Part shown: piece by piece, positions 1 through 40,839 of the stretch
Layout: the number at the start of each line of letters is the position of its first letter
How positions within the stretch are numbered: position 1 is the first letter of the stretch
Assembly: GCA_026026165.1 (NCBI GenBank)
Contig: JAPEUD010000011.1
Span: 186,001-250,000 of the forward strand
DNA length: 64,000 nucleotides
Direction: 5' to 3'
Source: Sarea resinae
Taxonomy: Eukaryota
Position numbers and translations under genes: made by a program
The notes under the pieces: model-generated
Seen by the model: the letters and a program-made list of their open reading frames with translations, nothing else
Databases searched by the model: none
Told to the model about the DNA's origin: nothing

Positions 1-3000
1 GTATTGGAAAGCAATCTTGTTAAGGCTGTTCTCTACGACAAGTCTCTTGAAAGCGAGTCGAGATCGTAGATGAGTTTGGAAGAGGCAAGTCGCGTTCTCC
101 TGAGCTTCTAGAGAGAGGGGATCGTCTCCTCGTACCACAACAAGTCGGCTGATCATGTCTCGGACTTTTGGAATGACGTCGTTAGGGTGTAGGTCACTCT
201 GCGATCCCTCTCTGATCCTGAAGATTGATTTCGCAGTATCTATAATCCGAATGACGTTGATGGGAAGCGGTATTGTTTCCGAGTCCTCTTTGAGCTTGTG
301 CTGTCGAAGGAAATTTCGGTCTGCTTTGAGCTGCTCCCACTCCGCGTCGAGATGACGTTGAACATCGATGTCACCTTGGATTTCACGCGCTTGTTCGAGT
401 AGCTCCGGGGTGATGCCTCCTTTCGGATCCATGACGTCGACACGGAACTTCTTCTCGAACTCTTTATCCGAACAAAAGACGACGTCCAGACGTTGCGATT
501 CAATGTGAACACCGTCCAATCCATCTTCGCCGTAAACGAACTGCACGATGTCTCCCAGAGAGTTTCTGACAGTACCATCATATTTGGCCATGACATCCTC
601 GAGAGCCTTGACCAGTCGTCGCTGAATATAACCAGTCTCAGCTGTTTTAACGGCAGTATCGATCAAACCTTCACGACCAGCCATGGCGTGGAAAAAGAAC
701 TCGGTTGGAGTCAGACCACGAAGATAAGAATTCTCCACAAACCCTCGTGATTCTGGGGAATAGTCATCCTTGGTGAAATGGGGGAGAGTACGATATTTGA
801 AGCCGAAAGGAATTCGCTTTCCTTCAACTGACTGTTGACCGACGACAGCAGTCATTTGGGATATGTTGATCGAAGAACCCTTAGAACCAGAACGAGCCAT
901 TTGGATGGCGTTGTTAAGATCTTTCAAACTCTTCTCTGTCTGATTTCCCGCCTCGTCACGCGCAGTATTGAGAGCCTTCGATACCTTACTTTCGAACGTC
1001 TCTCGGACGTTCATACCAGGCAGGGGTTCCAGAGTGTTCTCAGTGGCCTCTTTTGTGATATCTGCCACTTCAGCTTTCTGCTTGGACACCGCGTCCTGAA
1101 TTTGCTGGATCGTCGCTCGATCAGGAATGGTGTCTCCAATACCGATACTGAAACCATTTTGCAGGAGCCAGTAATTGACGACAGTCTGAGCACCGTTGAA
1201 GAATTTCATCGCTGCTTCAGGTCCGGACTCATTGAAGATAACGTGAATGACACCATTCGAAGCTGCACCCACAATGTTCTTCTTGAACAGACCATACATC
1301 AACTCTCCATTATGAATCCAGATCCCGTCATCATTCAATGGAGTCCAACCTTCGGCACTCGGCCGTATCAGATTCAACCCCTTAGGGAGGACGAGACTGA
1401 TGATCTGCTTGCCCGTCCAGCGGGGTCGCGGCTTCAAGATGGCTGGTTGGGGAATCACACCATCCCAATCTGGTACCCACAGCAGGACATTCATGACATC
1501 TTCCTTCGACAGAAAGACGTCTCGTCGGCACATCTTGTAAACGCCACAAAGGGTATCCTGCACGATACCCATAAGAGGACCGTTTCGTTGGGGCGACACG
1601 ATATTCAACGGGACCATGCAAAGCTGACTGATCTCGGCTCTAGTCTCTTCGCTCTGAGGTACATGCAAGTTCATCTCATCACCGTCGAAGTCAGCGTTGT
1701 ACGGAGAGGTGACGGAAAGATTGAGTCGGAAAGTCGAATATGGCATGACGCGTACGCGATGACCCATCATAGACTCTTTGTGTAGAGACGGCTGCCGATT
1801 GAAGATGATGAAATCTCCATCGATAATATGTCGCTCTACCTTCCATCCATATTGCAGGGATATCTCTCCTGCTCGTTTGTGATACCTCAGATCTATCCGC
1901 TCGCCTGTGTCACGAATCACGTACTTGGCTCCAGGGTGTTCATTCGGTCCATTCTTGACAAGCTGGTGAAGCCTATGGATGTTGTATGGCGTCACAGTCT
2001 CTGGATAGGTGAGTGTCCTCGCGATACTGCGAGGTACACCGACTTCGTCTAGCGACAGGTTCGGATCACCCGTAATGACAGTACGGGCCGAGAAGTCCAC
2101 ACGCTTTCCCATCAAATTGCCTCGCAGACGGCCTTCCTTTCCCTTTAGACGGGCGCGAATAGATTTGACAGGTCGGCCGGACTTTTGTAACGCCTGGGGC
2201 TGGCCCGCGATATCGTTGTCCATGTAGGTAGCCACATGGAATTGAAGTAGAGATTCGAATTCGTTGACGACATGCGCTGGCGAGCCTTCTTGTTCGCATC
2301 GTCGGACATTGCCATTCGCGCGGACGATATCGCCCAGCTTGTATGTAAGATCGTCCTCCCCTCGCATACCTTTTCCAGTGCCATCGACAGAAATACTAGG
2401 CCGGACCGGCGGAGGTGGAACGGGCAGAACGGTGATGATCATCCATTCGGGTCGCGCATAGTCATTACTGAGACCAAGTTTCCTAGCATCCTCAGTAGTT
2501 ATGTGGCGAAAGATGTTGAGGACAGTCTGAGGTTTGAGTTCTCGCTTTTCCGGCTGCTGGTCCTCATTGTCTTCATCGCCCTTTGGCAACTTGTAGGTAC
2601 CCATGAGCTTCAAACCCTCTTTCCGTATGACTGGCTGCAAATTTCCACATCCGCCATGGCTGCGCTTCTTGGCAGGGTCCTTGGATACGCCGAAATCCTC
2701 ATCATCGGGCGACGCGTCAGTTTCGCAGACCTGCTTGGCCTTACATTCTCGCCAAACGGCATCAAACCGGCGTTTCGGATCTCGAATCCGAAGTGCATCC
2801 ACGAACCTTGGATTGCTCTGATGATACGCATGTTAGCATTAAGCACGAAGAAGAGGCCATCCCATAGGGACGACTAACTTCATCTACCAAGATCTTCCCG
2901 CAGTTATGGCAAACCGACTCAAGGAGTTTCTTGATCTTGGTCATGAAACCTGGAAAGAACATTAGCGTCTTAAAGCTTGAGCAGAGAAGGTCAAATACCA

Positions 3001-4137: not shown

Positions 4138-5852
4138 ATGAATCTCTCACTTATTGATCCCTTCGTCCTGGCTCAGGACTATCCGGATGCTCTGACGGCC
4201 AAGCTCCGTGAGCCTACCCTTCGCCGATCAAGACACGTTCGCTGACGATGATTGCATCCAAGGCAGTGGACATGCGACCTGTATAAGATTCAATCGCAAA
4301 GGGGATCTCCTGGCTTCTGGCAGGGTACGACGCTGTTGATGCGATTCAGCATGAGAATACTCTTCTGACTTTCACTTCCAGGTCGATGGGACTGTTGTGG
4401 TATTTGACGTCGAGACCAATGGCGTCGCGCGAAAACTGCGTGGGCACACTCTGCAAATTCAGTCTCTGAGGTAAGCGCAAGTTCTAAAGAAGTAAACAGA
4501 TCTATGCTGACTGCCCAAGTTGGTCTCGAGACGGCCGATATCTTCTCTCCTCCTCCCAGGACTGGAAATGCGTGCTGTGGGACCTGAAAGATGGCTCCAG
4601 AGTCCGGACCGTCCGCTTTGAAGCGCCCGTATACATTGCAGATCTGCATCCCTTCAATCAGTGCGCGACAACCCTTAACCCGGAAGGAGTATCTTAGCTG
4701 ACACGTCTCGCTAGTTTAATGTTTGTTGTCTCGCTTTTCGAGGCTCAGCCTATGCTTGTCGACGTCTCAGACGAAATACCTCTCAAACGCGCCCTTCCAT
4801 CGGCACCAAAGCGACCGCACGTCGATGGCGAAGAGATCAGCGAGAAGCAGGCGGCGCAGGATGCGAAACAGACGACAACAGTGACGGTTTTCTCTGCCTC
4901 CGGAACGCATATCATTGGTGGGACTAGCAGAGGCTGGCTGAACATTATCGAAACCGAGTCCTGCGAGACGATACATTCGGCGCGACTCTCAAATGGGGTG
5001 CTGATCTTCTTTCGTCTTTCAGCTTCGGGCCGCGACATTGTCGTCAACTGCAGCGATAGAATCGTTCGAACGGTACATCTGCCTGACTTGACGGACGCAA
5101 AGGTTGATCCGGACAAGATCAAGATCGACGTGGAGCACAAATTTCAGGACGTAGTCAACAGACTGTCGTGGAACCATGTCGCTTTCAGCGCTACGGGAGA
5201 GTATGTGACTGCTTCTACATACATGAACCACGATATCTACGTCTGGGAAAGAGGTCATGGCAGTCTAGTCAAGATCCTCGAAGGGCCCAAAGAGGAGCTC
5301 GGTGTTGTCGAGGTACAGTCTCCCTAATCTACTTGTTTCAATACATATCTCACGCTTGAAACCCAGTGGCACCCCCATAGACCTCTGGTAGCAGCCTGCG
5401 GTCTCGACTCCGGCCGCGTGTACATCTGGTCCATCATCTCCCCGCAGCGCTGGTCAGCACTAGCGCCCGACTTCGCAGAAGTAGAAGAGAACGTCGAGTA
5501 TATCGAGCGCGAAGACGAGTTCGACATCCACCCGAAAGAAGAAATCCACAAGCGGCGGCTCGATCTCGAAGACGAGGACGTCGACGTCTTGACCATCGAG
5601 CCCGTGAAGGGAGAGTCCGAGGACACGGCCTTTTTGATGCCCGTGCTTCTTGATATCGATGACAGCGAAAGCGAGGAAGAGATCATTGCGGTTGGGCCAG
5701 GCACCATGCGGAGGAAGTCTCCCGGCGAGGGCAGGGAATGGATGAATGGCGACAGCGGCGGGAGTGGTGACGAGCGGGCGGCGTCGAAAAAACCTGCCGC
5801 TAATGGCGTCTCTAAGACTCAGAGTCGTAGTAAGAGACGGAAGCCAGATTGA
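4138..5852 (+). CDS. SWD1: COMPASS/Set1C WD40 subunit Swd1 (RBBP5 homolog), 5 introns
   Basis: MNLSLIDPFVLAQDYPDAL..LRSGHATCIRFNRKGDLLASGR|VDGTVVVFDVET..QSLSWSRDGRYLLSSSQDW..HKFQDVVNRLSW..QRWSALAPDFAEVEENVEYIEREDEFD, typical of Swd1/RBBP5. Confidence 0.95.
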
Positions 5853-7754: not shown

Positions 7755-8360
7755 GATGATGTGATGATGATGTGATGTGAGAGGTGCTGGGACTTGATTT
7801 ACGCTATAGTACCGGAGAGCTCGGAAGAAAGAGTTCAGAGAAGATGGATGAAATGCAATGGCGAAGAAAGATAAAAGGGGGAAAAATCGAAAATCGAGGG
7901 GAAGGGGAAAACCGAACGGGAAGTTGGGGAAAAGAAAAGAGATGTTCGTTTTGAAAGTAAGCAGGTGCACAAATAAGAGAAAAAAGGTAAAGTACGCAAG
8001 TCCTTCAACTCCCTCGACTCCCTTGCTCGATAGGAAGATAATACCAGAAACAGTTTCGAGGTCCCAATTGCATGCGAGTGAGCGAGGCGTAGGACATCAT
8101 AACATAGAATCCCATCTCATGCCATCCAATGGCGTTGACTTCAATCTGGTATCTTACCATGTTGAACCGAACAAGACAATGGCCAATGATTGTTCTCCTT
8201 GCTCAAGAGCGAGCTAGATACGGAGAAGTATGAATGATGGTGGGGTTGGCTTAGAAATGCGATATTGGATGTCGGAAGAGAGCGTCTCTGCCTTGATGTG
8301 CCTAATCTTTTGTTCTTGACGCCCGTACAGATGGCGATATCGATTCTGTACGTCTTTCGT

Positions 8361-10567
8361 TCAAGCGTTCGAATCGTGGACATGGCCAATAGCATCAGCA
8401 GCAGGAGTAGGAGCATCCGTAGCACCATCCGTACGCGCCTGAGACCGACCACTTCCAACACCCCCATACAACAAGCGGGCATCATTTCTCATCTCCGTGG
8501 GTCCAAAGCTCTCCAAGTAGTGATCCAAATCGCCCCCAAAGCCAACAGGAAGCACGCACTCACAACTCGCGCAAACAATCAACGGACACCCGAGGCACTT
8601 ACTCAACGCATACCCAGGGCAGATGCAGCAAGAAGTCTGCCGATTACGCATGATATCCGTCATTGGGCGTCCAGCCTGGCTCAAGCTCTCTGGCCCCGCG
8701 GCGTGCACAGAGATGGGAAGGAAGGTGACGTGCTTTTCGTGGCTGATGATATGCATGCGGCGGTATGCGCAGCCGTGGCACATCTTACTTGCCGCGGAGC
8801 GGGGCACGTTGGTGTCGATTAGCAAGATTCCGCGGCCCGGGAGACCCCATGTCTGTTCGGTGAGACACCAGTCGCAGAACTTTTTGGAGTGGACAAAGTT
8901 CAGGCGTGCGAGGATGAGAGTAGCAGAGACCTTGCGGTAGACATCGTTAGGGATCATGGGTTCCGGGAATGTGTTAGGGACGCTGGCTGCGTAGTTGGTG
9001 TCACCGATGGTTGGGATGCGGGCGTTCGGGGCGGTGGGGGCTGCAGAGCTGGTGGAATCGAGCGGTTGGGGGACATCTTCCCTATTGTCGAGGGAGAGAA
9101 TGTGGCTGATGCAATGAAGAACTGCAGCGCGTCGGCGAAGTGGTTCGGAGATGTGACCATCTGTTGTGAGGATGCTTCGGATCTCTGCTGTAATTCTTCC
9201 GCGAACATCAGGGATGACACCGTTGTTGAAGGGACGAGGGCGTCTCTTGGGTACCTCACAGCGATACAGTGGATTGATGTGGTTCACGCCTTGTTCGTGC
9301 TGTCGCTGACGTGCCAGTGATGGAAGCGGGGGTGGACCGAGCGGTACAAGCAGAGAGCTTGTCGCTTTGCGATCCTGGTTCACGGCACGAGCTGTGGCAT
9401 TGTCTTGACCGGCCACTGCGACGACATGATGGTTGAGAGATGAACGGCGAGGGGCATTCTGCACTGTCCGGCTGATTGGAGTTGGTGTAGTCCCCCCTAG
9501 TAGCGGACGACGGGAAAGGGTTTGGGGAGTCTGGCGTTGGGCCGCTTGATGTCCTTCGTCAAGGGCTGGAGCGACCTCTGATATTGTGTCACTCTCTGAT
9601 GGGAGGTCATGATGAGTCTGTAAGGTCAGCGAGATTATGAGCAGACATACTGAGCAAAAAACATAAGAGAGACGAAGATTGGGCAGCTCTTCATACTTAC
9701 TGAGAGAGTCCCTGTAAAAGAAGCGGTCGCCCCGCCCTCTTTTCCTCTGGTCGGAAGTATGCTCGCGTTTCTAGAGTCCTGCATTTTGGTATTGTATCAG
9801 CCGACAGAGAACAAAATAATTATCAATAGAACCTTGCTCGACTTACTATGTGAGGCTTCACTGAAGGTATGTCAATACTTTCATTCACCATTTCCGTCAG
9901 ACTCCTTTGCTCATCCTCTTGATGAGTGAAGTTGCCGTTTCTTGGCAGTCTCTTGATTCCTGCGGTAGGTTGCGTTCGATGGATCGGCGTTGACTAGAGC
10001 AAGTCATTTTATATCAGCAGGATGCTTTTTGTTTTTTTGAAAACCTGCAATTTGACATTCGCATTAGATGGGCGTTAGAGCACGCACCGGAGCTACAGCC
10101 TTCCGAACCGTGCTTGGAACTTTCGTTGGCGTTGAGTGTGCTAAACCTAAGCTGCGAGGCTTCATCTGAATTTGTGTCAGATCATCTAAGTCCGGAACAT
10201 TCGATGAAGATGATTTGTTGAGAGTTAAGCTCTCTGGAGTTGAGTTTAATGCCAAGTTGTGTGAAGCTTTGATCTTCAAATTTGGTTTCTTTGGAGTTGC
10301 GTTCTCTGTTGCCGAAGTGAACGTCCCCGTCATTAATTCTGCATGGTCTCTCTTCGGATCCCTCTTCCCTAGTTTTGGTGATCCTATTTGGCTGTCTTCG
10401 GACAAGGTAATTCGGCTGGGTGTACTATCACCATTTTGAGTAGATGGGGATGGCTGAAAATTTCCATCTTGCGGTCGCGTGTTTTCAAGCAAGATCGGAA
10501 TTGGCTGAGCACTAGAAAGCCCAGATGTTTTCCTGCCCTTCCTGGCTGTCTGTTTGATGCGCGGCAT
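8361..10567 (-). CDS. Uncharacterised ~653-aa protein with H3-tail-like N-terminus, S/T/P-rich disordered middle and Cys-rich C-terminal zinc-binding domain; exons 10567-10088, 9993-9847, 9778-9701, 9617-8361
   Basis: Three phase-0 introns (GTGCGT..TAG, GTAAGT..CAG, GTAAGT..CTGAC..CAG) join ORF 10064..10882 to ORF 8361..9464 in one stop-free frame. N-term MPRIKQTARKGRKTSG; C-term CDWC-x28-CHGC..CCIC-x7-CLGC-x4-CASC. Confidence 0.8.
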
Positions 10568-11280
10568 GATTTGAGTCGGACTTGATATAATTGACGAAGG
10601 CCTACTGTGGGCTGCGCCGCAGAAATCAACACCGGAAGATGGGATTGTACAGGCAGTCAACAATGCCAGCAGCTGGCACGGAGGCGTTGGATGAAGTTGA
10701 TGACAGGCGGAGAATTGACTCAATTGAGAAAAAAATAAAGGGAGCTCACTTATTTGTCGAGTTCGACACGGTTCACTGAGGCTCGGCTCCAAAGTGCATG
10801 AAATGGACGACAGAGCGAATTGGCAGTCACGTTGATGACGCGTTGATGATAAAAATGAGATGCGATGTGATTGAGGGAGCAACAGGTCACCTTTAATTTC
10901 TCTGACGGGTATCCTTCCGGTTGACGTAAGTGCTTAGAATTAAATGGCAAGAATAGGGTTCCATTTGAGGCTATTCAAGGAAGGTGCAGCTATGAGAACA
11001 TGCGACGCATACGAAATCTAAATTCAAGACGCCAGTCATCACCGTGAGAACGCATGCAGACAGCCGTACGATTGAGCTATGATGTTAGCCTTGTGACACA
11101 ATACTAGAAAGAATAAAGGGGTTTCAAACTAGGAATCGCCAACCAACTCCATCCGCATTTGATACGTTCATGATGAAAGCATTGAAATCTGTTGCATGCT
11201 AAATGGTGCTGACGAGGATGGTCACAATGCCAAGCTCTGCTCATGAGGAGCCTATGATATGGAAGACTCTGCTTAGCCCT

Positions 11281-14200
11281 TTAATCGGTCTTTAAGCTTT
11301 CCTCGATCGCGCGTCTGAGTTCAGGATCGTCATCAGCATCAACCTGGATTTCCTTTCCCTTCACAAGCTGGTGGTGCTCCTTTTCGAGCAAACTCTGCTT
11401 CTTGATATACTCCATGACAACCCTTTCCTCACTCTCCGCGCGCGACTCGTTTTCCTGATGTTGCTGATGAATTTGCCTTGACTCCTCTATGGCCTTCCTC
11501 AATTCGCTATCATCCTCATAAGGCTCGTGTTGTAGTGAATCTTGCAAAGCCTGCTTTATATCTTCGTCTGTGTCAATACCAGAGTCATTATTATGCTGCT
11601 CTCGTGTCTTGGACATGTTGCCGATACTGTCGTTCTGTTTCGAGTCACCACTATGACGAGATTGATCTTCATTTACGCGGTGTCGTGTAGACTTCAGTTC
11701 GAGGACGCTTGCTCTGATCGCCCGTTCGATCAATCTATCTTCCGCATCATCGCCTCTCGATGTTGCCGCAACAGAACGCCTAATGGCCTCTTCAAATTCG
11801 GCATCTTCTCGTTCCTCGCTTGGAGTTCTGCCATGAGGAGAGCCCGAATGGATGTCTTCTTGAGAAATTGTAGATCCAATACCCGTGGCCTTTGCAGGAT
11901 CTTCTTTTCTCCGCTTCTTCTCTTCTGCCAATGCCTTCCTCTCACTAAAGGACAGATGTCTCGTCTCCCAGAAGCCATTTGGGAGCTTCGATGTCTGTGT
12001 GCTGTAAGTGGGATCTGTCGCAATACGCTTTTGCTTCTCGGGCTCGGCCGAACGGGTTTTCGTCCTCACCGGCTCTACTTGGGTGAGCGATATTTGGAGG
12101 GCTTTCCAGTTGTTGATGATCTCATTACGCTCTTTCTCGGTGATCTGTTTCCACTCCTCATAGCCCTGTGTTGCTCGAGCGGCATAAATATAATTCTGAA
12201 TGTTGGCGCCAAATCGCTTTTGGATTTCTCTATAAATCCCTCGGAATGTGTAGCCGGGCACACCCCAGAAAGCTGTGGAAGTATAGTCAGCAAGAATCAC
12301 ACGTATCTAAACACACCGTTGAAGCACTAACCAGCACTAGGCTTCAATACGACCCCTCCTATACCTTTGCCGAAACCCTTAATAGCACCTGCGAAACCTT
12401 CCTTTTCGGCACCTTTCAAAGGTTGGGTGACTAGGCCAGAGATACCATCGTATAAGCCGTAACCAAATTCCTAAAAAGATGTTAGCATGAGCTAATAGTT
12501 ATTTTTTGGAGGTTATATACTTTTCCCGCTGCTTTGAGCCCGCTGTGAAAACCTGTGATCTTCTCGGGAGCTCTGACACTTTCATCGCCATACAGTCTAG
12601 GCGCATTGTGAAAACCCCTCGCAAGACTAAGTGTGAAGTCCATAGGTGATCGAACGCCGACATCAACGATGTGAAGAGCACTCTTTCCCGCTGACACAAC
12701 ATCATCAAATGAAACCTGACCCTGTTCAGAATCATTAGAATCGCGCCGGCTGTTGGTTGAAGAAACGGAGCTTGATCTTTGGCGTGAAGTTGTTCCTGGG
12801 TGAGGTGGCTCCAGGCGAGAGCCGGATGTTTCGTGAGTTTCGGTCTCAAAAAGACTCCCATTCAGAGCTTGAGACATTGCATTACCGCGACCATTGGCTG
12901 ATGGAGTAGATGTAGAAGGGCGTATTTTAGGGGTATCCGGCTGGCCTACGAGCTTGCCATCTAAGCTCTCGGACCCCATCGAAGGCGTATTGGCGATCTC
13001 AGGTTGCTGACTTCGGGACGCCAATGATAGACTGGAGTCGGCCCTTGCCAAATCCGAGTCAACTTTTGATAGATTGGATGATGTCGAAACAGCGGAAACG
13101 GCGCGCGAGCGTGTCTGTGATGGCTGCGGTGAGCGACTCCGGAGGCTAGAAACATCGACTGCTGAGTCCTGCTCGTCTAAAGCAACCGACTTTTTTGACG
13201 CTGACTTCATTTTCATGCTCTTAACGATGTCGATGGGTAAGTCTGCAACACCGCCCATGAGGCTGCCTATGGTACCCAATAAGGCAGAGGCACCGCCAGA
13301 GATAGGTTCCAGAGCTCCATCTTCAGCCATATAGTCGCGTGGGCGAAACCTGCAGAGTGTGAGAGCTAATTCATTGCCCATCAGGCCAGACTTACTGTTT
13401 GAGGTCGCCGAATTCGATGAGTCCCTCGTTACCCAATACCGTCGCCGCCAAAGCACTAAGTTGGATTCGTGTGCGCTTAACTCTCCATACTGCAACCCGA
13501 TTAGGGGCTATTGCACAGCGCATCTTGTCATAATCAAGCATGGTATGAAAACTCTGCGCTCCGACATCGCAACCTCTCTCTTCCCGGATCTTGTCCCCGA
13601 GTTCACCAGCTCTAGCCAAAGCATTTGGCTCTAGCGCTTCGAGTATAGCGCCAGCAAGCTTGTCGGCTGTGAGAGTCTTGTAAGGAATAGGGGCGGGACC
13701 TGCTCCAGCTTTCGCAGTCATTGCACCCCAGAAAGCTTGATCGCCAAAGAAAGGGACCACGACTGTAGGCCTACCCAAAGCAATACCAGCTGCTGTGGTG
13801 CCAGCGCCACCATGGTGGACCACGCAGGACACATGCTTGAAAAGCCAGTCGTGTGGAACATTGCCCAGCATAAAGACACCTTCTGGGATCCCTATTTCGT
13901 TTGCGCCAAACCCGCCCCATCCCTTTGAGACCAGAGCTCGCTGCCCTGTCTTTTTGACAGCTTCGAAGATCAATTTGGTCATCGCATTGGGATCATCAAC
14001 GACGATTGAACCAAACCCGATGTAAACAGGCGGTGGGCCAGCCTCGAGAAATGCAGCCAGATCTGGATCCGGTGTAAAGTTTGACGCAAGAGATAAAAAG
14101 AAGAATCCAGATATGGTTATCTCACTCCCCCAATCTCGTGGCTTAGGTATTAGGGCTGGGGACCTGTGAAATTGAGTAAGATGGAAACTACGATCTTTGG

Positions 14201-15590
14201 GGTAGTATTACTTACCAGCAGTATGTAAATGGTATTTTCATGCGATTGACCATGCCGGGTGCGCAAGCTAGACTTATGGACTCCAACCCCAAATATCTTT
14301 CCCGAAACCTATTGATAACGTCGCCAAGGCCTTGCCAGGTCATCATCTCCACTAGAGCGTAAGAGATGAAGTTGGCCAAGCTCAAATCAGAATTGTTCGA
14401 TTGGATGTTGGCTAGTGGATGAGGGAATGCTTGTGTAGGCGTCCAAGGCATACTAGGTTTCTCAGTCAGTTTGAAATAGCCATACCAGCTCTAGTCGACC
14501 TACGTAAACATTAAATGCAGTGGGATACCAAGCCTCTCAGCACAATGAACATGAGCAAAGCTTGGAGGATTGGCAATAATGGCATCCGCAACGAAGGGAG
14601 TCAACGGCTCTGATCCAGACGAGTCGCCAGTGTCGAGTCGGGTGAATTCAGCCGCCGCGTCATCCGAGGCTGCGATACCGGTGCCATCACCAGCCTCGAT
14701 ACAGGACCTCCAGCACCCTTTAATGATCTCGTACATGCCTTTCCGGCGTTTACCGATATCGCCACTTCGAAGCGTATCCATACCAGGCATAAGCCCGGGG
14801 TTCTTCACCATGAAAGCCATGAGCTCTGCCGGATCTCCCCCGATGCTGAAAAATTCAAGTCCATTCTCTTCGACAAATTCCTTGAAAGAAGGATGCGTTG
14901 CCAGGCGGACTCTATGGTTATAATCTCGTTTCAAGACTTTTCCTAATGCAACAAAGGGCTGTACATCTCCACGAGAACCGACCACGTGGATGACGACGTT
15001 CATGGGCGGAGGACAGTTTTGACCAGGGCCACCGCCAAGCGATGGAGGAATGTAACTGGGAACCGGTTCTGGCTTTTCACAAATGTGTAGTTGGTGGCGT
15101 AGAGCTGGTACGAGAAGATTCGAAAGGGTCAATGCTCTCTGATTGATTTTGATATTGACACGTCCATCATCTGTAAGGCTATTAGCATGTCAAACATCGA
15201 ACATAAACAGCCGGATTATATACTTGAAACATCCGCATGCGTGTTCAGTCCACCTTGATCAAAGTCGAGCTGATTGTGAGCTTTGCTGTATGCTGGTGGC
15301 GGTATAGACTCGATGGAAAGTTCGTCCATAGAAACTCTGGGAGCGGGAGGAGGCTTGCTACCAGTCGACGTTTCATGATGAGTGCTGTCTCGGGCACTCG
15401 TCCTGTAGACTTTGCAATTAGCCAAGTGTCCACATCATCAAAGAGATTGGAAGCAGTCTTACGAAGATCTCTTATGGCCTTCAGATTCGACCCCAGACTC
15501 ATCTGCATGACGGCTAGGTTCATGCTGACCTGACGATATGCTCTCTTTCCGATCGTCGCCCATCTTCTCTGTTTCTGATGGCTCTCCCAT
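11281..15590 (-). CDS. Glycosyltransferase family 1 / GT28-domain (UDP-glucose:sterol glucosyltransferase-like) protein with C-terminal UIM-like repeats, multi-intron
   Basis: MNVVIHVVGSRGDVQPFVALG..HRVRLATH; DAIIANPPSFAHVHCAERLGIPLHLMFT|MPWTPT; PHDWLF..VVHHGGAGTTAAG..VVPFFGDQAFWG (UDP-sugar signature); C-term EDAEFEEAIRRS, DDSELRKAIEES, DDPELRRAIEESLK. Start codon choice (15590) is inferred. Confidence 0.88.
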
Positions 15591-37941: not shown

Positions 37942-40373
37942 TCATTCCTCGTCGTCCTCTACGCTCTCGTCCTCGCTCGCGTCATCTTCCATACCATCCA
38001 GCATATCATCACCAGCCCGCCCACGCTCCTCCTTCCTCTTCCTCTCCTCCTCTCTTCTACCTTCTTCAAGGAGCTTAGCCTTCTCCTCCCTCGTCTTTCG
38101 CTGCCCGACCACGAACGCCCCTAGAGGACTCTTCTCCCACTCGACATCCTTGAGGAATCCTTCGACTCCAGCCCGGTCATTGGGCGCGAAATCAACCTTT
38201 GCTCGCCTCTCTTCGATCCATTTCCCGTTGGCTTCGAGCTTCTGCACCACCAGGCCTATTGCGGAGTTCACCTTGCCATTCTTATTTCCTGAACCTTTCT
38301 TCGAGACGTCCTTGAGCCATCTTTTGAGCATAACCGTCACAGGCAAGGCCAGTTCCGGAAAAGCGATACTCTTCGTCCAGAGGACAAAGAATTCGGCCAT
38401 TAGCTCCGCAACCTGCTCACCAATGCCATCCTGGTACACTCGGGTCGAGAGATACGACTTCGGCGCTCTGATCGAAGTGGCGAAATCCAGACTCTTCAGC
38501 GTGCTGGGTTTTGGGGGCTTCTTCATCTCGGCCGAATTGAGCACTTCAAGAAGAGCAGGGGCCAGTGGTATATAAGTCCCGGTGGCTAGAGACAATCGGA
38601 GTAAAGCCCGCACGAGCTGGAAGCGGAGGGGGAAATATTGAGCGGTTGGAATGAGACGCATGGCACCGAGAGTTATTTGTACCGTCGGATATATAAGCGG
38701 ACGCAGGAGTGATTCCTTGCCGGCCTCTGCTTCCTTCAAAGCTTCGCAATGAGAGGAGAGCACACGCGACCAGAAATCGAGAGAATGAGCGTATTGCCAG
38801 TTGTATATGGTTTTGTAAGAATCCTAACACTGTCAGATAAATAGCAGGCCGCTGGGCATTCAAAGACCATACCTTTGTTGGTTTTGTGATGCTTCCACGC
38901 AAGTGGATGGCCAGCTGGCGAATGAATGTGAATCCCGTCGTATATCCCACGCTCTGGTCCAGACCCCAAAGCTCGGCGGCAGAGTTCTTCATGAGATTGA
39001 CTCCCTGAATAGTGTGAACAGTCGTATTCCGACTGCCCCTGACCAAACCCTGGTAGACGGTTTTCAAAACAGCCTCCCGCAACCCGGGGTCACCAATGAC
39101 AGTTAACCGGCGGATCACGAGGAAGGCTGTGATCCGTGATGCCTCGGTGTTGGATGAATCTGACCAGATCTCTACCACTGTCTTGACCAAGTTTCGCAAC
39201 AGTTTCTTGAACGAAAGAAGATATGGCAGCAAGGGCAAGAGCGAAGATAGTGTCAACCGGAGTGTTGAAGCGTCTGAAAGTACTCCAAGGAGATGCTGGA
39301 CTGAAGTAGCGTGTGACTTGAGGAGTGGTGTAAGGGTTCGATACTTTTTAGAGTCCGTGGAAACCCGACTTTGTTGATATTAGCGTCCATTTCTTGATTA
39401 TGAGAGAGACGATACATACACTTTTCCAGAGGCACTCTCTTTCACCGGTAAGTGATGGTTCAGAACATCAGGTACATTCTTGAGAGCGATGATCAGAAGC
39501 TCATGATATACTACACCGAGTCAGCGAGATCTTTGTCCAATGGGAAGAGACTGTACCATCGGGGTTGGAGATCGTGTACTTGTACTGCTTCCCATCTTCC
39601 TCATTGGCGTGCGCCGCCGCTCTGAAGGCTAGAACCACCTGCCGCATAGCGCGCAGAGAATGATTTTCTGACAGGGCTACCCTCCACTTCTTGACCATGG
39701 CCATCGTAACCTCCGTCTCATCAAAAACCTCATCTGATTCATTATCGGACTCCGGCTTCTCCTTCTTGGCCTTTTTCTGTTTCTTCTTCGGTGCCTCATC
39801 CTCGGAAGCGCTCAGTTGGTCCACTTCGGCCAAATCTCCGTCTTCTGCAAAGTCCAGAAGTTCGGCATCGTTCTCTTTCAAGTACTTGTAGAATTCTGGA
39901 TCTTTTTCGGCCAAGGCGTCCAGAGTTTCCCTATGCGCACCAAGACTATCACCTCCTTCGGACTCGGGCTCACTATCGCTGGCAACACCATTTTCCTCGA
40001 TCGATTCAACGGATGACATATCATCTTCTTCGTTGCGTTCGATTCGTTTCCTCTTTCCGGTCTTGGTCGTAGCGCCTTTGGTTTTCGAAGCCTTTTTGCC
40101 CTTTTTTGCAGGTTCTTCTGGAATGTCAAATCCGCCTTGTAAAAAATCATCGACGCTCATCTCCGCCAGTGGATTTGCGGGCGCCTCTTTCCCATTTCGC
40201 TCGGGAGCGGAGTCTTTTTCCTCTTCAGCGCGCGCTTTTGCATTTTTCGCCTTTTTCTTTGCATTGACCTGGTGTCGTTGCTTGATTTTGGCAAAATCCT
40301 TTCGCCGTTCGAGAGTATCTTTCAGATGCTTCTTCTCGAATTTCTTCGTCGACTTCTTTGACTGGCCAGCCAT
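37942..40373 (-). CDS. NOC2: Nucleolar complex protein Noc2, 3 introns
   Basis: KKSTKKFEKKHLKDTLERRK, LAEKDPEFYKYLKENDAELLDF, NLMKNSAAELWG, FIRQLAIHLR, YNWQY, LIYPTVQITLGAMRLIPTAQYFPLRF, SIAFPELALP. Confidence 0.96.
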
Positions 40374-40839
40374 GACGGATTACTGCGCCTGGAGGCTTCG
40401 TGCTTCTACTCCGCTGAGGTGGACAGATGTGGTGGGCTTGGGACTTGGGCCGACTTTCAAAAAGTCGAAATTCGACATTGAATGGGCGACGCTAAAGCGA
40501 GAGCCTCGGCAACCTCCGTCGACACCCACCTCAGCGGAGTAGAAGCACGAATTGCAGTACTCAATGGGTTACAGTCAATGCTTCACTTCCATAACTATGT
40601 AGGCATGTGGAAGGTGACTGGTCTTCTAATAAGTCATTATTACTACTATATAATCGCCTGCCATGCAAAATCATGTCCATCTTCGTACAAGACCAGCGAG
40701 GCTCTATCCAAAGCTCTAAAGTCCCGGCAACGATACGCTCCAAACGCCCTCATACTTCGTTTCGTATCGTTTATTGGAATCACCGCTTGTGCCGATATTC
40801 AAAAGCGCATCAACAGGCTTTCCGAATGCGAGACTGCTT

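Follow-up and report, generated by a model that had tools for sequence, protein, structure and literature searches.

An in-register near-copy of the histone H3 tail at the start of a non-histone protein of the fungus Sarea resinae: candidate histone mimic or fortuitous basic N-terminus

The locus described here raises the question of whether a non-histone protein of Sarea resinae presents a working copy of the histone H3 tail at its N-terminus, or whether its likeness to H3 is a matter of chance. The window, a stretch of 64,000 nucleotides of contig JAPEUD010000011.1, contains a gene on the reverse strand whose first 16 codons (10567..10520: ATG CCG CGC ATC AAA CAG ACA GCC AGG AAG GGC AGG AAA ACA TCT GGG) translate to MPRIKQTARKGRKTSG. 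Aligned from the initiator methionine with H3.3 (PDB 7ux9_E, start MARTKQTARKSTGG), eight of the first ten residues are identical (M1, R3, K5, Q6, T7, A8, R9 and K10, counting Met as 1), as the initial annotation had claimed. The substitutions are A2 to P and T4 to I, with S11 to G next in line, so that the replacement of T3 and S10 in mature H3 numbering, by I and G, was also correctly recognised there. The string KQTARK forms a contiguous six-residue identity, and removal of the methionine would restore the H3 numbering exactly; the earlier assumption that Met is removed before Pro agrees with the rule given in PMC8166343. In mature numbering the identity ends at K9, after which the protein continues with GRKTSG and H3 with STGGKAP. 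The tail carries six K/R residues within its first 13 positions, and the first acidic residue is E28.

In order to judge how readily such a start arises, we estimated the chance of at least seven of nine matches to mature H3 residues 1-9 at the fixed N-terminal position, with a background of either approximate preset frequencies or the protein's own composition. The resulting 9e-8 to 3e-7 per protein corresponds to about 1e-3 for a proteome of 10,000 proteins. A value near 1e-7 per protein speaks for a working mimic, and the improbability of an in-register match within one proteome (about 1e-3), together with the contiguity of KQTARK and its exact H3 register after Met removal, argues against a fortuitous origin; across a scan of many genomes, however, the probability of a chance H3-like start is not negligible. 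Elsewhere in the window, ARKSTGG, equal to H3 residues 7-13, is encoded off-frame within a Noc2-family gene and is followed by a stop codon, so basic coding DNA can yield H3-like strings by chance.

The gene is real. The four-exon structure proposed earlier for 10567-8361 encodes 653 amino acids, and the product is identical to a database protein, P0001 ('MAG: hypothetical protein M1819_000686 [Sarea resinae]'). Exon 1 (10088..10567, 160 codons; this and all following features of the gene lie on the reverse strand) is rich in S, T, P and N, predicted to be disordered and weak in coding signal. It is followed by intron 1 (9994..10087, 94 nt, GTGCGT...TAG), whose junction is also implied by P0001, exon 2 (9847..9993, 49 codons), intron 2 (9779..9846, 68 nt, GTAAGT...CAG), exon 3 (9701..9778, 26 codons), intron 3 (9618..9700, 83 nt, GTAAGT...CAG) and exon 4 (8361..9617, 418 codons plus stop). 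All three introns have GT..AG ends, lie in phase 0 and contain branch-site-like CTRAY motifs, joining four open frames. The codon-usage signal in frame 0 is 0.017 bit per codon for exon 1 (-0.016 over its initial 60 codons), compared to 0.161 for the C-terminal domain; its near absence from exon 1 suggests little constraint. The search for sequencing runs listed three, none of them of RNA. Contigs of the probable source run cover 8200-10900 with 0 differences and do not represent independent DNA, those of the other two runs gave no alignment to the stretch, and our literature search on the Sarea resinae genome found no genome or transcriptome paper.

The protein is predicted to be mostly disordered. 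AlphaFold2 assigns no secondary structure to residues 1-373, with pLDDT mostly below 50; in the full-length model the block means are 30-49 over residues 1-390, and the ESM Atlas model has a mean pLDDT of 0.35. Pfam searches returned no family for exons 1, 2 and 4 at E<=1, nor did the complete protein give one at E<=0.1. The earlier statement that a histone fold is lacking is borne out, as there is neither a match to PF00125 nor a helix before residue 374; we accordingly rejected assignment of the protein to histone H3, for which Pfam and AlphaFold2 would have to place a histone fold after the tail. The first structured elements are two predicted helices (9090..9203, residues 374-385 and 393-411). 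This is also the first part that resembles relatives, a weak likeness judged by eye from shared short strings: BLASTP of residues 358-413 against residues 520-584 of the relative P0006 gives 16.5 bits at E 7.8.

The cysteine-rich C-terminus noted in the initial annotation proved to be a Cys/His-rich domain (8448..8876, residues 483-625) with twelve conserved Cys/His ligands (C483, C486, C515, C518, H528, H531, C565, C568, C576, C579, C584 and C587) and an RNDAxLL motif after them. We defined the domain family as 24 sequences, the Sarea protein and 23 relatives (alignments A1 and A2). H528, C565, C568, C576, C579, C584 and C587 are invariant across the 24, while C515, C518 and H531 occur in at least 22 rows and C483/C486 in 13; the Sarea protein has all of them and, with the twelve ligand positions and RNDAxLL, shows the traits of this fungal family. 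The ligands probably form three zinc sites. AlphaFold2 models residues 440-630 with a mean pLDDT of 77.3 and a pTM of 0.69. For this domain, a Foldseek comparison with the PDB produced no match at E<=0.001 (best E 0.18), a wide VIA-align comparison no fold match (best Z 2.9) and a PDB profile search nothing better than E 0.33; among ESM Atlas features the top score, 0.87, went to 'hypothetical protein' clusters. None of these results puts a family name to the domain. Weak matches to the B-box (PF00643; best E 0.0097) occur in 5/24 family members and a single weak match to the HIT zinc finger (PF04438) in 1/24, none of them in the Sarea protein (E<=0.1).

Conservation of the motif was assessed with HMMER, which, run exhaustively against 1.84 billion representatives, yielded the 23 relatives, all of them matching query residues 427-624 only. 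They share the C-terminal domain alone with the Sarea protein, at 19-35% overall identity. The initial annotation had counted absence of the motif from orthologues as refuting its reading. None of the 23 has an H3-like start, which tells against that reading only in a weak form, since these relatives are too distant to be orthologues and their lack of the motif is therefore weak evidence. Word-indexed searches with residues 1-40 found no orthologue in 5.8 billion clusters; with these residues, exon 4 or residues 440-630 as query, the Sarea protein itself was the sole match. For exon 1, 474 pattern matches in JGI metagenomes included none that could be confirmed as a relative, and for the first ~360 disordered residues no orthologue was found in any collection searched. 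Starts that are basic without resembling H3 are present in three of the 23 relatives (MAPKRKAA.. in P0017 and P0023, ..TRNKRARAS in P0007), and P0006 contains MPRKRQ at residue 49; a basic N-terminus without H3 identity thus recurs in the family.

We tentatively favour, at somewhat less than even confidence, the reading that the H3-like start is a fortuitous or NLS-type basic tail. The gene would encode a lineage-specific protein in which about 370 disordered residues precede two helices and the fungal Cys/His domain, and the basic first 13 residues may serve in nuclear targeting or as a generic basic tail, as in the few relatives named above. The identity to H3 would then be fortuitous or not kept by selection, having arisen in a fast-evolving disordered N-terminus, and the protein would presumably serve no special purpose in the H3K4/K9 machinery. 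Consistent with this are the 0/23 homologues with an H3-like start, all matching in the C-terminal part only, the non-H3 basic clusters at the start of 3/23, the lack of any relative for residues 1-40 or exon 1, the faint codon-usage signal of exon 1 and the off-frame ARKSTGG of the same window. The end of the identity at K9, which three of the metagenome families described below run past, and the Ile at position 3, where most of them have Thr, point the same way. Against it stand the register and improbability of the match, the remoteness of the 23 relatives and the recurrence of H3-prefixed non-histone open reading frames with a bias for Thr. If the tail is fortuitous, what remains is an orphan gene of an ordinary kind whose product starts with basic residues.

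Possible, though rather doubtful, is a working mimic of the H3TM type, in which the free P-R-I-K-Q-T-A-R-K would be engaged by factors that recognise the H3 tail and would recruit them, titrate them or be regulated by them. Its partners could be PHD fingers, RbAp48/Msi1-type WD40 proteins, LSD1, HP1 after K9 methylation, and Set1/COMPASS as writer. In PMC8166343, H3TMs are defined by an N-terminal iMet-Z-R-X-K, where Z is A, G, S, C, T, P or V. The Sarea start M-P-R-I-K (residues 1-5) follows this rule with Z=Pro, and the tail is disordered in the AlphaFold2 and ESM Atlas predictions, in line with the disordered-tail criterion for H3TMs, and should hence be accessible. The same minimal start is common in human proteins (48/20,996; PMC8166343), which in turn supports the basic-tail reading.

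A close parallel is VRK1, whose start P-R-V-K(me3) is bound by the PHD finger of PHF2 (crystal 7M10), with Pro1 tolerated and even favourable in the complex, and whose K4 is methylated in vitro by Set7/9, MLL1 and PRDM9 (PMC8166343). Both proteins are non-histone and have Pro1-Arg2 followed by a beta-branched residue (Val in VRK1, Ile in Sarea), Lys4 and a disordered tail; VRK1 continues with A-A-Q after K4, whereas the Sarea protein copies H3 residues 5-9 exactly (QTARK), a K4-K9 identity longer than in the human examples compared. The Sarea protein is, on the other hand, fungal, unrelated to VRK1 in sequence, and an orphan for which the searches gave no conserved orthologue. The H3TM motif is kept among orthologues in the MEF2, SALL, BCL11, FOG and TSHZ families; the H3TM authors found K4me3 in vivo on no candidate and state that an in vivo demonstration was not achieved (PMC8166343, Chen et al. 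2021), which weighs against a mimic.

A second parallel is offered by the SNAG factors (Snail/GFI1/INSM1), which likewise begin with M-P-R, carry basic residues at positions 8 and 9 and mimic the H3 tail in the substrate cleft of LSD1, binding it via P2, R3, S4, F5, R8 and K9, residues required in SNAI1 (PMC5066116). Pro1-Arg2 starts are proven H3 mimics in animals (VRK1, SNAG), a point that tells against a fortuitous tail. SNAG proteins differ in having Ser4-Phe5, of which Phe5 enters the LSD1 site, where the Sarea protein has Ile4-Lys5, and in being metazoan, conserved within their families and joined to DNA-binding domains of the C2H2 zinc-finger type; the Sarea protein shares none of these traits. 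We considered the Sarea protein as a SNAG protein and rejected the assignment on its I-K at residues 4-5 in place of S-F and the absence of a zf-C2H2 Pfam match. The N-terminal NuRD/RBBP4 motifs of FOG1, SALL and BCL11 are similarly short and basic and bind a WD40 histone chaperone in the place of the H3 tail (PMC8166343). They differ in being animal motifs that resemble H3 loosely and have structural proof, where the Sarea tail is a candidate. Their motif letters are R..KQ, and we know of no canonical NuRD in fungi. Other histone mimics, namely the G9a automethylation site, DNA ligase 1 K126 and the influenza NS1 tail, use ARK-type strings for K9/K4 readers or writers; these are internal or C-terminal, out of N-terminal register, and copy 4-6 residues. 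Our literature search on H3 mimicry gave no fungal case among the matches listed.

Several observations weaken the mimic reading. The motif is absent from all 23 relatives and no N-terminal orthologue was found; T3 and S10 have been replaced, and G-R-K stands at residues 10-12 where H3 has S-T-G. DIM-5-type K9 methyltransferases are said to need these residues of H3. Exon 1 carries little coding signal and the start site is predicted, and when AlphaFold2 models the whole protein the tail is not docked on its zinc domain. Although a candidate histone mimic, the Sarea protein might just as well carry a basic tag that arose by chance. Should the mimic work, a fungal protein other than a histone would act directly within the H3K4/K9 methyl-reading system, and N-terminal histone mimicry would become genetically tractable outside animals and viruses.

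We scanned metagenomes for MPRxKQTARK and obtained 13 non-histone open reading frames in nine families (loci L004, L005, L007, L012, L014, L017, L018, L022, L025, L026, L027, L029 and L032). None of the 13 has a histone-fold marker within 1.5 kb downstream, and the ten that were scanned gave no Pfam family. The free position is Thr in six of the nine families, compared to none of seven chance matches in 596 Gb of prokaryote DNA, and in three of the nine the H3 identity runs past K9, reaching residues 11-17, which points to derivation from H3. H3-prefixed orphan proteins therefore recur, an argument for the mimic. Like the Sarea protein they carry an in-register H3 prefix, lack a histone fold and fall into no known family; they differ in that most have Thr3 and three extend past K9, where Sarea has Ile3 and ends at K9, and beyond the motif no relationship to the Sarea protein was found. 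Such exact H3-tail prefixes suggest recurrence in nature and may outweigh the Sarea case in usefulness. It is on balance unlikely that the far-reaching form of the mimic reading holds, according to which the Sarea protein would be a true in-register H3(1-9) mimic, the first from a fungus and with a fuller K4-K9 copy than the animal H3TMs compared. The H3K4/K9 machinery would in that case write, read or erase marks on its tail, and the protein would belong to a wider undescribed class of H3-prefixed orphans with nine further metagenome families.

It is quite improbable that the H3-like start is an artefact of the gene model, with exon 1 untranslated, the mRNA starting downstream and translation beginning elsewhere or at the ATG at 9782..9784. 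This codon, in frame with exon 3 within intron 2, has a good context (CAAAATGC; the open reading frame 9635..9796 reads ..KMQDSRNAS..), and its product, M-Q followed by exons 3 and 4, would have about 446 amino acids and no H3-like tail, a length that fits most relatives (14/23 have 292-466 aa). The model stems from automatic MAG annotation, residues 1-357 are without homologue support and exon 1 has next to no codon-usage signal. Upstream of ATG 10567 the reading frame is moreover free of stops for 122 codons without an ATG, the other two frames having 3 and 7 stops, so open frames here are partly compositional. On the other side, when the region was shuffled 2000 times by dinucleotides, an ATG-initiated frame of at least 168 codons arose in only 21 cases and a 289-codon open frame in none; three canonical phase-0 introns link the four open frames; and exon 4 requires an upstream start, since it offers no ATG ahead of residue 456 in full-length numbering. 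ATG 10567 has an A at -3, is the first in-frame ATG and would be the first of any frame for transcription starts within about 230 nt upstream, the sole other ATG within 390 nt belonging to an eight-codon upstream open reading frame (10773..10799). Inspection of 10568-11300 for ATGs, donors and acceptors revealed no plausible upstream coding exon.

With six K/R among the first 13 residues, no D or E before residue 28 and Pro at position 2, the N-terminus might also act as another known signal, either a mitochondrial presequence or, once Met has been removed, a Pro/N-degron. This is very improbable, given the multi-zinc Cys-rich domain at the C-terminus, the NLS-like starts of relatives and the few hydrophobic residues among the first 16, which make an amphipathic helix unlikely.

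The gene next on the 3' side encodes the COMPASS subunit Swd1/RbBP5 (match to PDB 6e29_D, E 2e-74); this adjacency would suit a mimic of the H3 tail, but was noticed post hoc and is regarded as a post hoc coincidence.

On the reverse strand of the window, nucleotides 10567-10520 read MPRIKQTARKGRKTSG, and this start shares eight of its ten opening residues with histone H3.3 (PDB 7ux9_E, which begins MARTKQTARKSTGG), the mismatches being A to P at position 2 and T to I at position 4, followed by S to G at position 11, counted from Met. The string opens a gene of four exons on the same strand (10567-10088, 9993-9847, 9778-9701 and 9617-8361), whose introns of 94, 68 and 83 nt are all GT..AG and in phase 0, and the spliced product of 653 aa matches the database protein P0001 ('MAG: hypothetical protein M1819_000686 [Sarea resinae]') at every residue. 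The initial annotation had described this gene, its eight matches to H3 and the replacement of T3 and S10 by I and G, and its factual statements on the gene are all correct. They extend to a protein that lacks a histone fold and is disordered apart from a Cys-rich domain: no Pfam family matches at E≤1, and the full-length AlphaFold2 model is without secondary structure before residue 374, after which two helices (374-385, 393-411) precede a domain modelled with confidence at ~460-623 (pLDDT 77.3 and pTM 0.69 for the C-terminal domain prediction).

Searched exhaustively with HMMER (E≤0.001), 1.84 billion representatives yielded 24 proteins including the query, and all 23 relatives align to query residues 427-624 only; no homologue of residues 1-357 was detectable in any collection searched. 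The common domain features an RNDAxLL motif and 12 conserved Cys/His positions, all of them carried by the Sarea protein. H528, C565, C568, C576, C579, C584 and C587 are invariant in the 24 rows, C515, C518 and H531 occur in at least 22, and C483 and C486 in 13. No solved fold was matched (Foldseek best E 0.18, VIA-align best Z 2.9), and Pfam B-box/HIT profiles match weakly, in some relatives only. The domain is a fungal zinc-binding domain.

The H3-like string is found at the N-terminus of none of the 23 relatives, an absence that does not amount to an orthologue comparison, as the relatives are distant (19-35% overall identity) and their likeness is confined to the C-terminal domain. Three of them carry other basic N-terminal clusters, MAPKRKAA in two (P0017, P0023) and ..NKRARAS in one (P0007), while in a fourth, P0006, MPRKRQ stands at residue 49 and may mark where the protein truly begins. 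This distribution suggests that a basic N-terminus would be a loose family trait and the H3 identity would not. The two long relatives starting M-A-P-K-R-K present another chromatin-flavoured N-terminus in the family; X-P-K is the motif of N-terminal alpha-methyltransferases, which M-A-P-K-R-K would fit once Met is removed.

We tentatively favour the reading that the Sarea tail is a basic, probably nuclear-targeting one, and that its likeness to H3 is fortuitous or unselected. The probability that a given protein matches mature H3 at seven or more of residues 1-9, with the N-terminal position fixed, lies between 9e-8 and 3e-7, using approximate frequencies set by hand or the Sarea protein's own composition as background; this corresponds to ~1e-3 per proteome and to the order of 0.1-1 across millions of proteins. 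Such independence-based estimates understate chance in basic-rich sequence, because the same window contains ARKSTGG (H3 residues 7-13) at ~40182 (-), within 39501-40379. These seven residues are read off-frame where a Noc2-family gene has its basic N-terminal exon, a stop codon comes after them, and their likeness to H3 is due to chance.

A working mimic of the H3TM (H3 N-terminal mimicry) type is possible, if somewhat doubtful. H3TMs are defined by iMet-Z-R-X-K, found in 48 of 20,996 human proteins (Chen et al., 2021, PMC8166343), and the Sarea start conforms to this pattern and goes further with QTARK. The same report describes VRK1 (P-R-V-K...), which is bound by the PHF2 PHD finger on K4 trimethylation, with favourable contacts made by Pro1 in the VRK1-PHF2 crystal (7M10), and is methylated at K4 in vitro by Set7/9, MLL1 and PRDM9; by the authors' own statement in vivo K4me3 was not found (PMC8166343). 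SNAG-domain factors share the M-P-R start and act as H3 mimics towards LSD1, and P2, R3, S4, F5, R8 and K9 are described as required in SNAI1 (PMC5066116); the Sarea start departs from the SNAG consensus at residues 4-5. The tail is mimic-like by analogy only, and by sequence a candidate H3TM.

Scanning JGI metagenome contigs with the back-translated pattern MPRxKQTARK yielded 33 loci, of which 15 are true H3 genes, recognised by downstream histone-fold markers, five are short or internal and 13 (L004, L005, L007, L012, L014, L017, L018, L022, L025, L026, L027, L029, L032) are non-histone ORFs of 56-496 aa that open with the motif and show no histone-fold marker, in any frame, over the next 1.5 kb. 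These fall into nine families by BLAST with the first 12 residues cut off, and the ten scanned of the 13 contain no Pfam family. The free position is Thr in six of the nine families, and H3 identity continues past K9 in three (L017, L018, L029), in L017 and L018 to ~residues 15-17. In the control, 596 Gb of prokaryote genomes, eight loci comprised seven chance matches, none with Thr at the free position, and one H3-like gene on a MAG contig. Taken together, families and control argue that H3-prefixed non-histone proteins are, as far as sequence tells, real and recurring. The Sarea tail lacks the marks of H3 derivation (Thr3, extension past K9), and none of the 33 loci shows kinship with the Sarea protein outside the ten motif residues. 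L005, L007, L026 and L027 have a C2H2-like Cys/His pattern after the tail. The MAG locus (L041, labelled Desulfosporosinus) encodes an H3-like protein that begins MPRTKQTARKSLGGKAPRK and continues into histone-fold-like sequence; eukaryotic or viral DNA may have contaminated the bin.

That the gene model is an artefact and the tail is not made we regard as unlikely. Exon 1 scores close to zero in codon usage (0.017 bit/codon; -0.016 in the first 60 codons), compared with 0.161 in the C-terminal domain and -0.169 in the 366 nt upstream of the ATG, and starting at an in-frame ATG at 9784, within intron 2, would give 446 aa, a size typical of the relatives (14 of 23 are 292-466 aa long). Against this, the ATG at 10567 is the first in frame, with A at -3. 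When the region was dinucleotide-shuffled, an ATG-initiated ORF of this length (at least 168 codons) came up in 21 of 2000 cases and a 289-codon open frame in none. The only other ATG in the preceding 390 nt, at 10799, opens an 8-codon uORF, and the 714 nt separating the start from the end of the same-strand upstream gene at 11281 contain no plausible candidate for an extra exon. At 10568-10933 (-) the gene's frame is stop-free for 122 codons, with no ATG inside, against 3 and 7 stops in the other two frames, and scores like non-coding sequence in codon usage (-0.17). That the tail would be another N-terminal signal is very improbable.

The next recognised gene 3' of the Sarea gene, at ~4138-5852 (+), encodes an orthologue of Swd1/RbBP5, one of the core subunits of the H3K4 methyltransferase COMPASS (PDB SWD1-like 6e29_D, E 2e-74; Swd1 6bx3_B; RbBP5 6kiu_N). 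The two genes run towards each other and are ~2.5 kb apart, an arrangement noticed post hoc. Clustering of such genes is rare in fungi. Just upstream of the Sarea gene, ORF 11281-12306 (-) contains several ubiquitin-interacting-motif-like repeats (..LRRAIEESL.., ..LRKAIEESR.., ..IERAIRASV..); ORFs bearing glycosyltransferase 28 and UDPGT domains (13395-15189) lie upstream of it. The window (1-2832 (-) and beyond) is ordinary core genome, its other genes encoding RNA polymerase II Rpb1, a Dus3-type dihydrouridine synthase, Bap31, GWT1, a protein kinase, GH31, a Gig2-like protein, Noc2, a Ras-family GTPase, an ABC (membrane_2) transporter, an aldo-keto reductase and NPR2.
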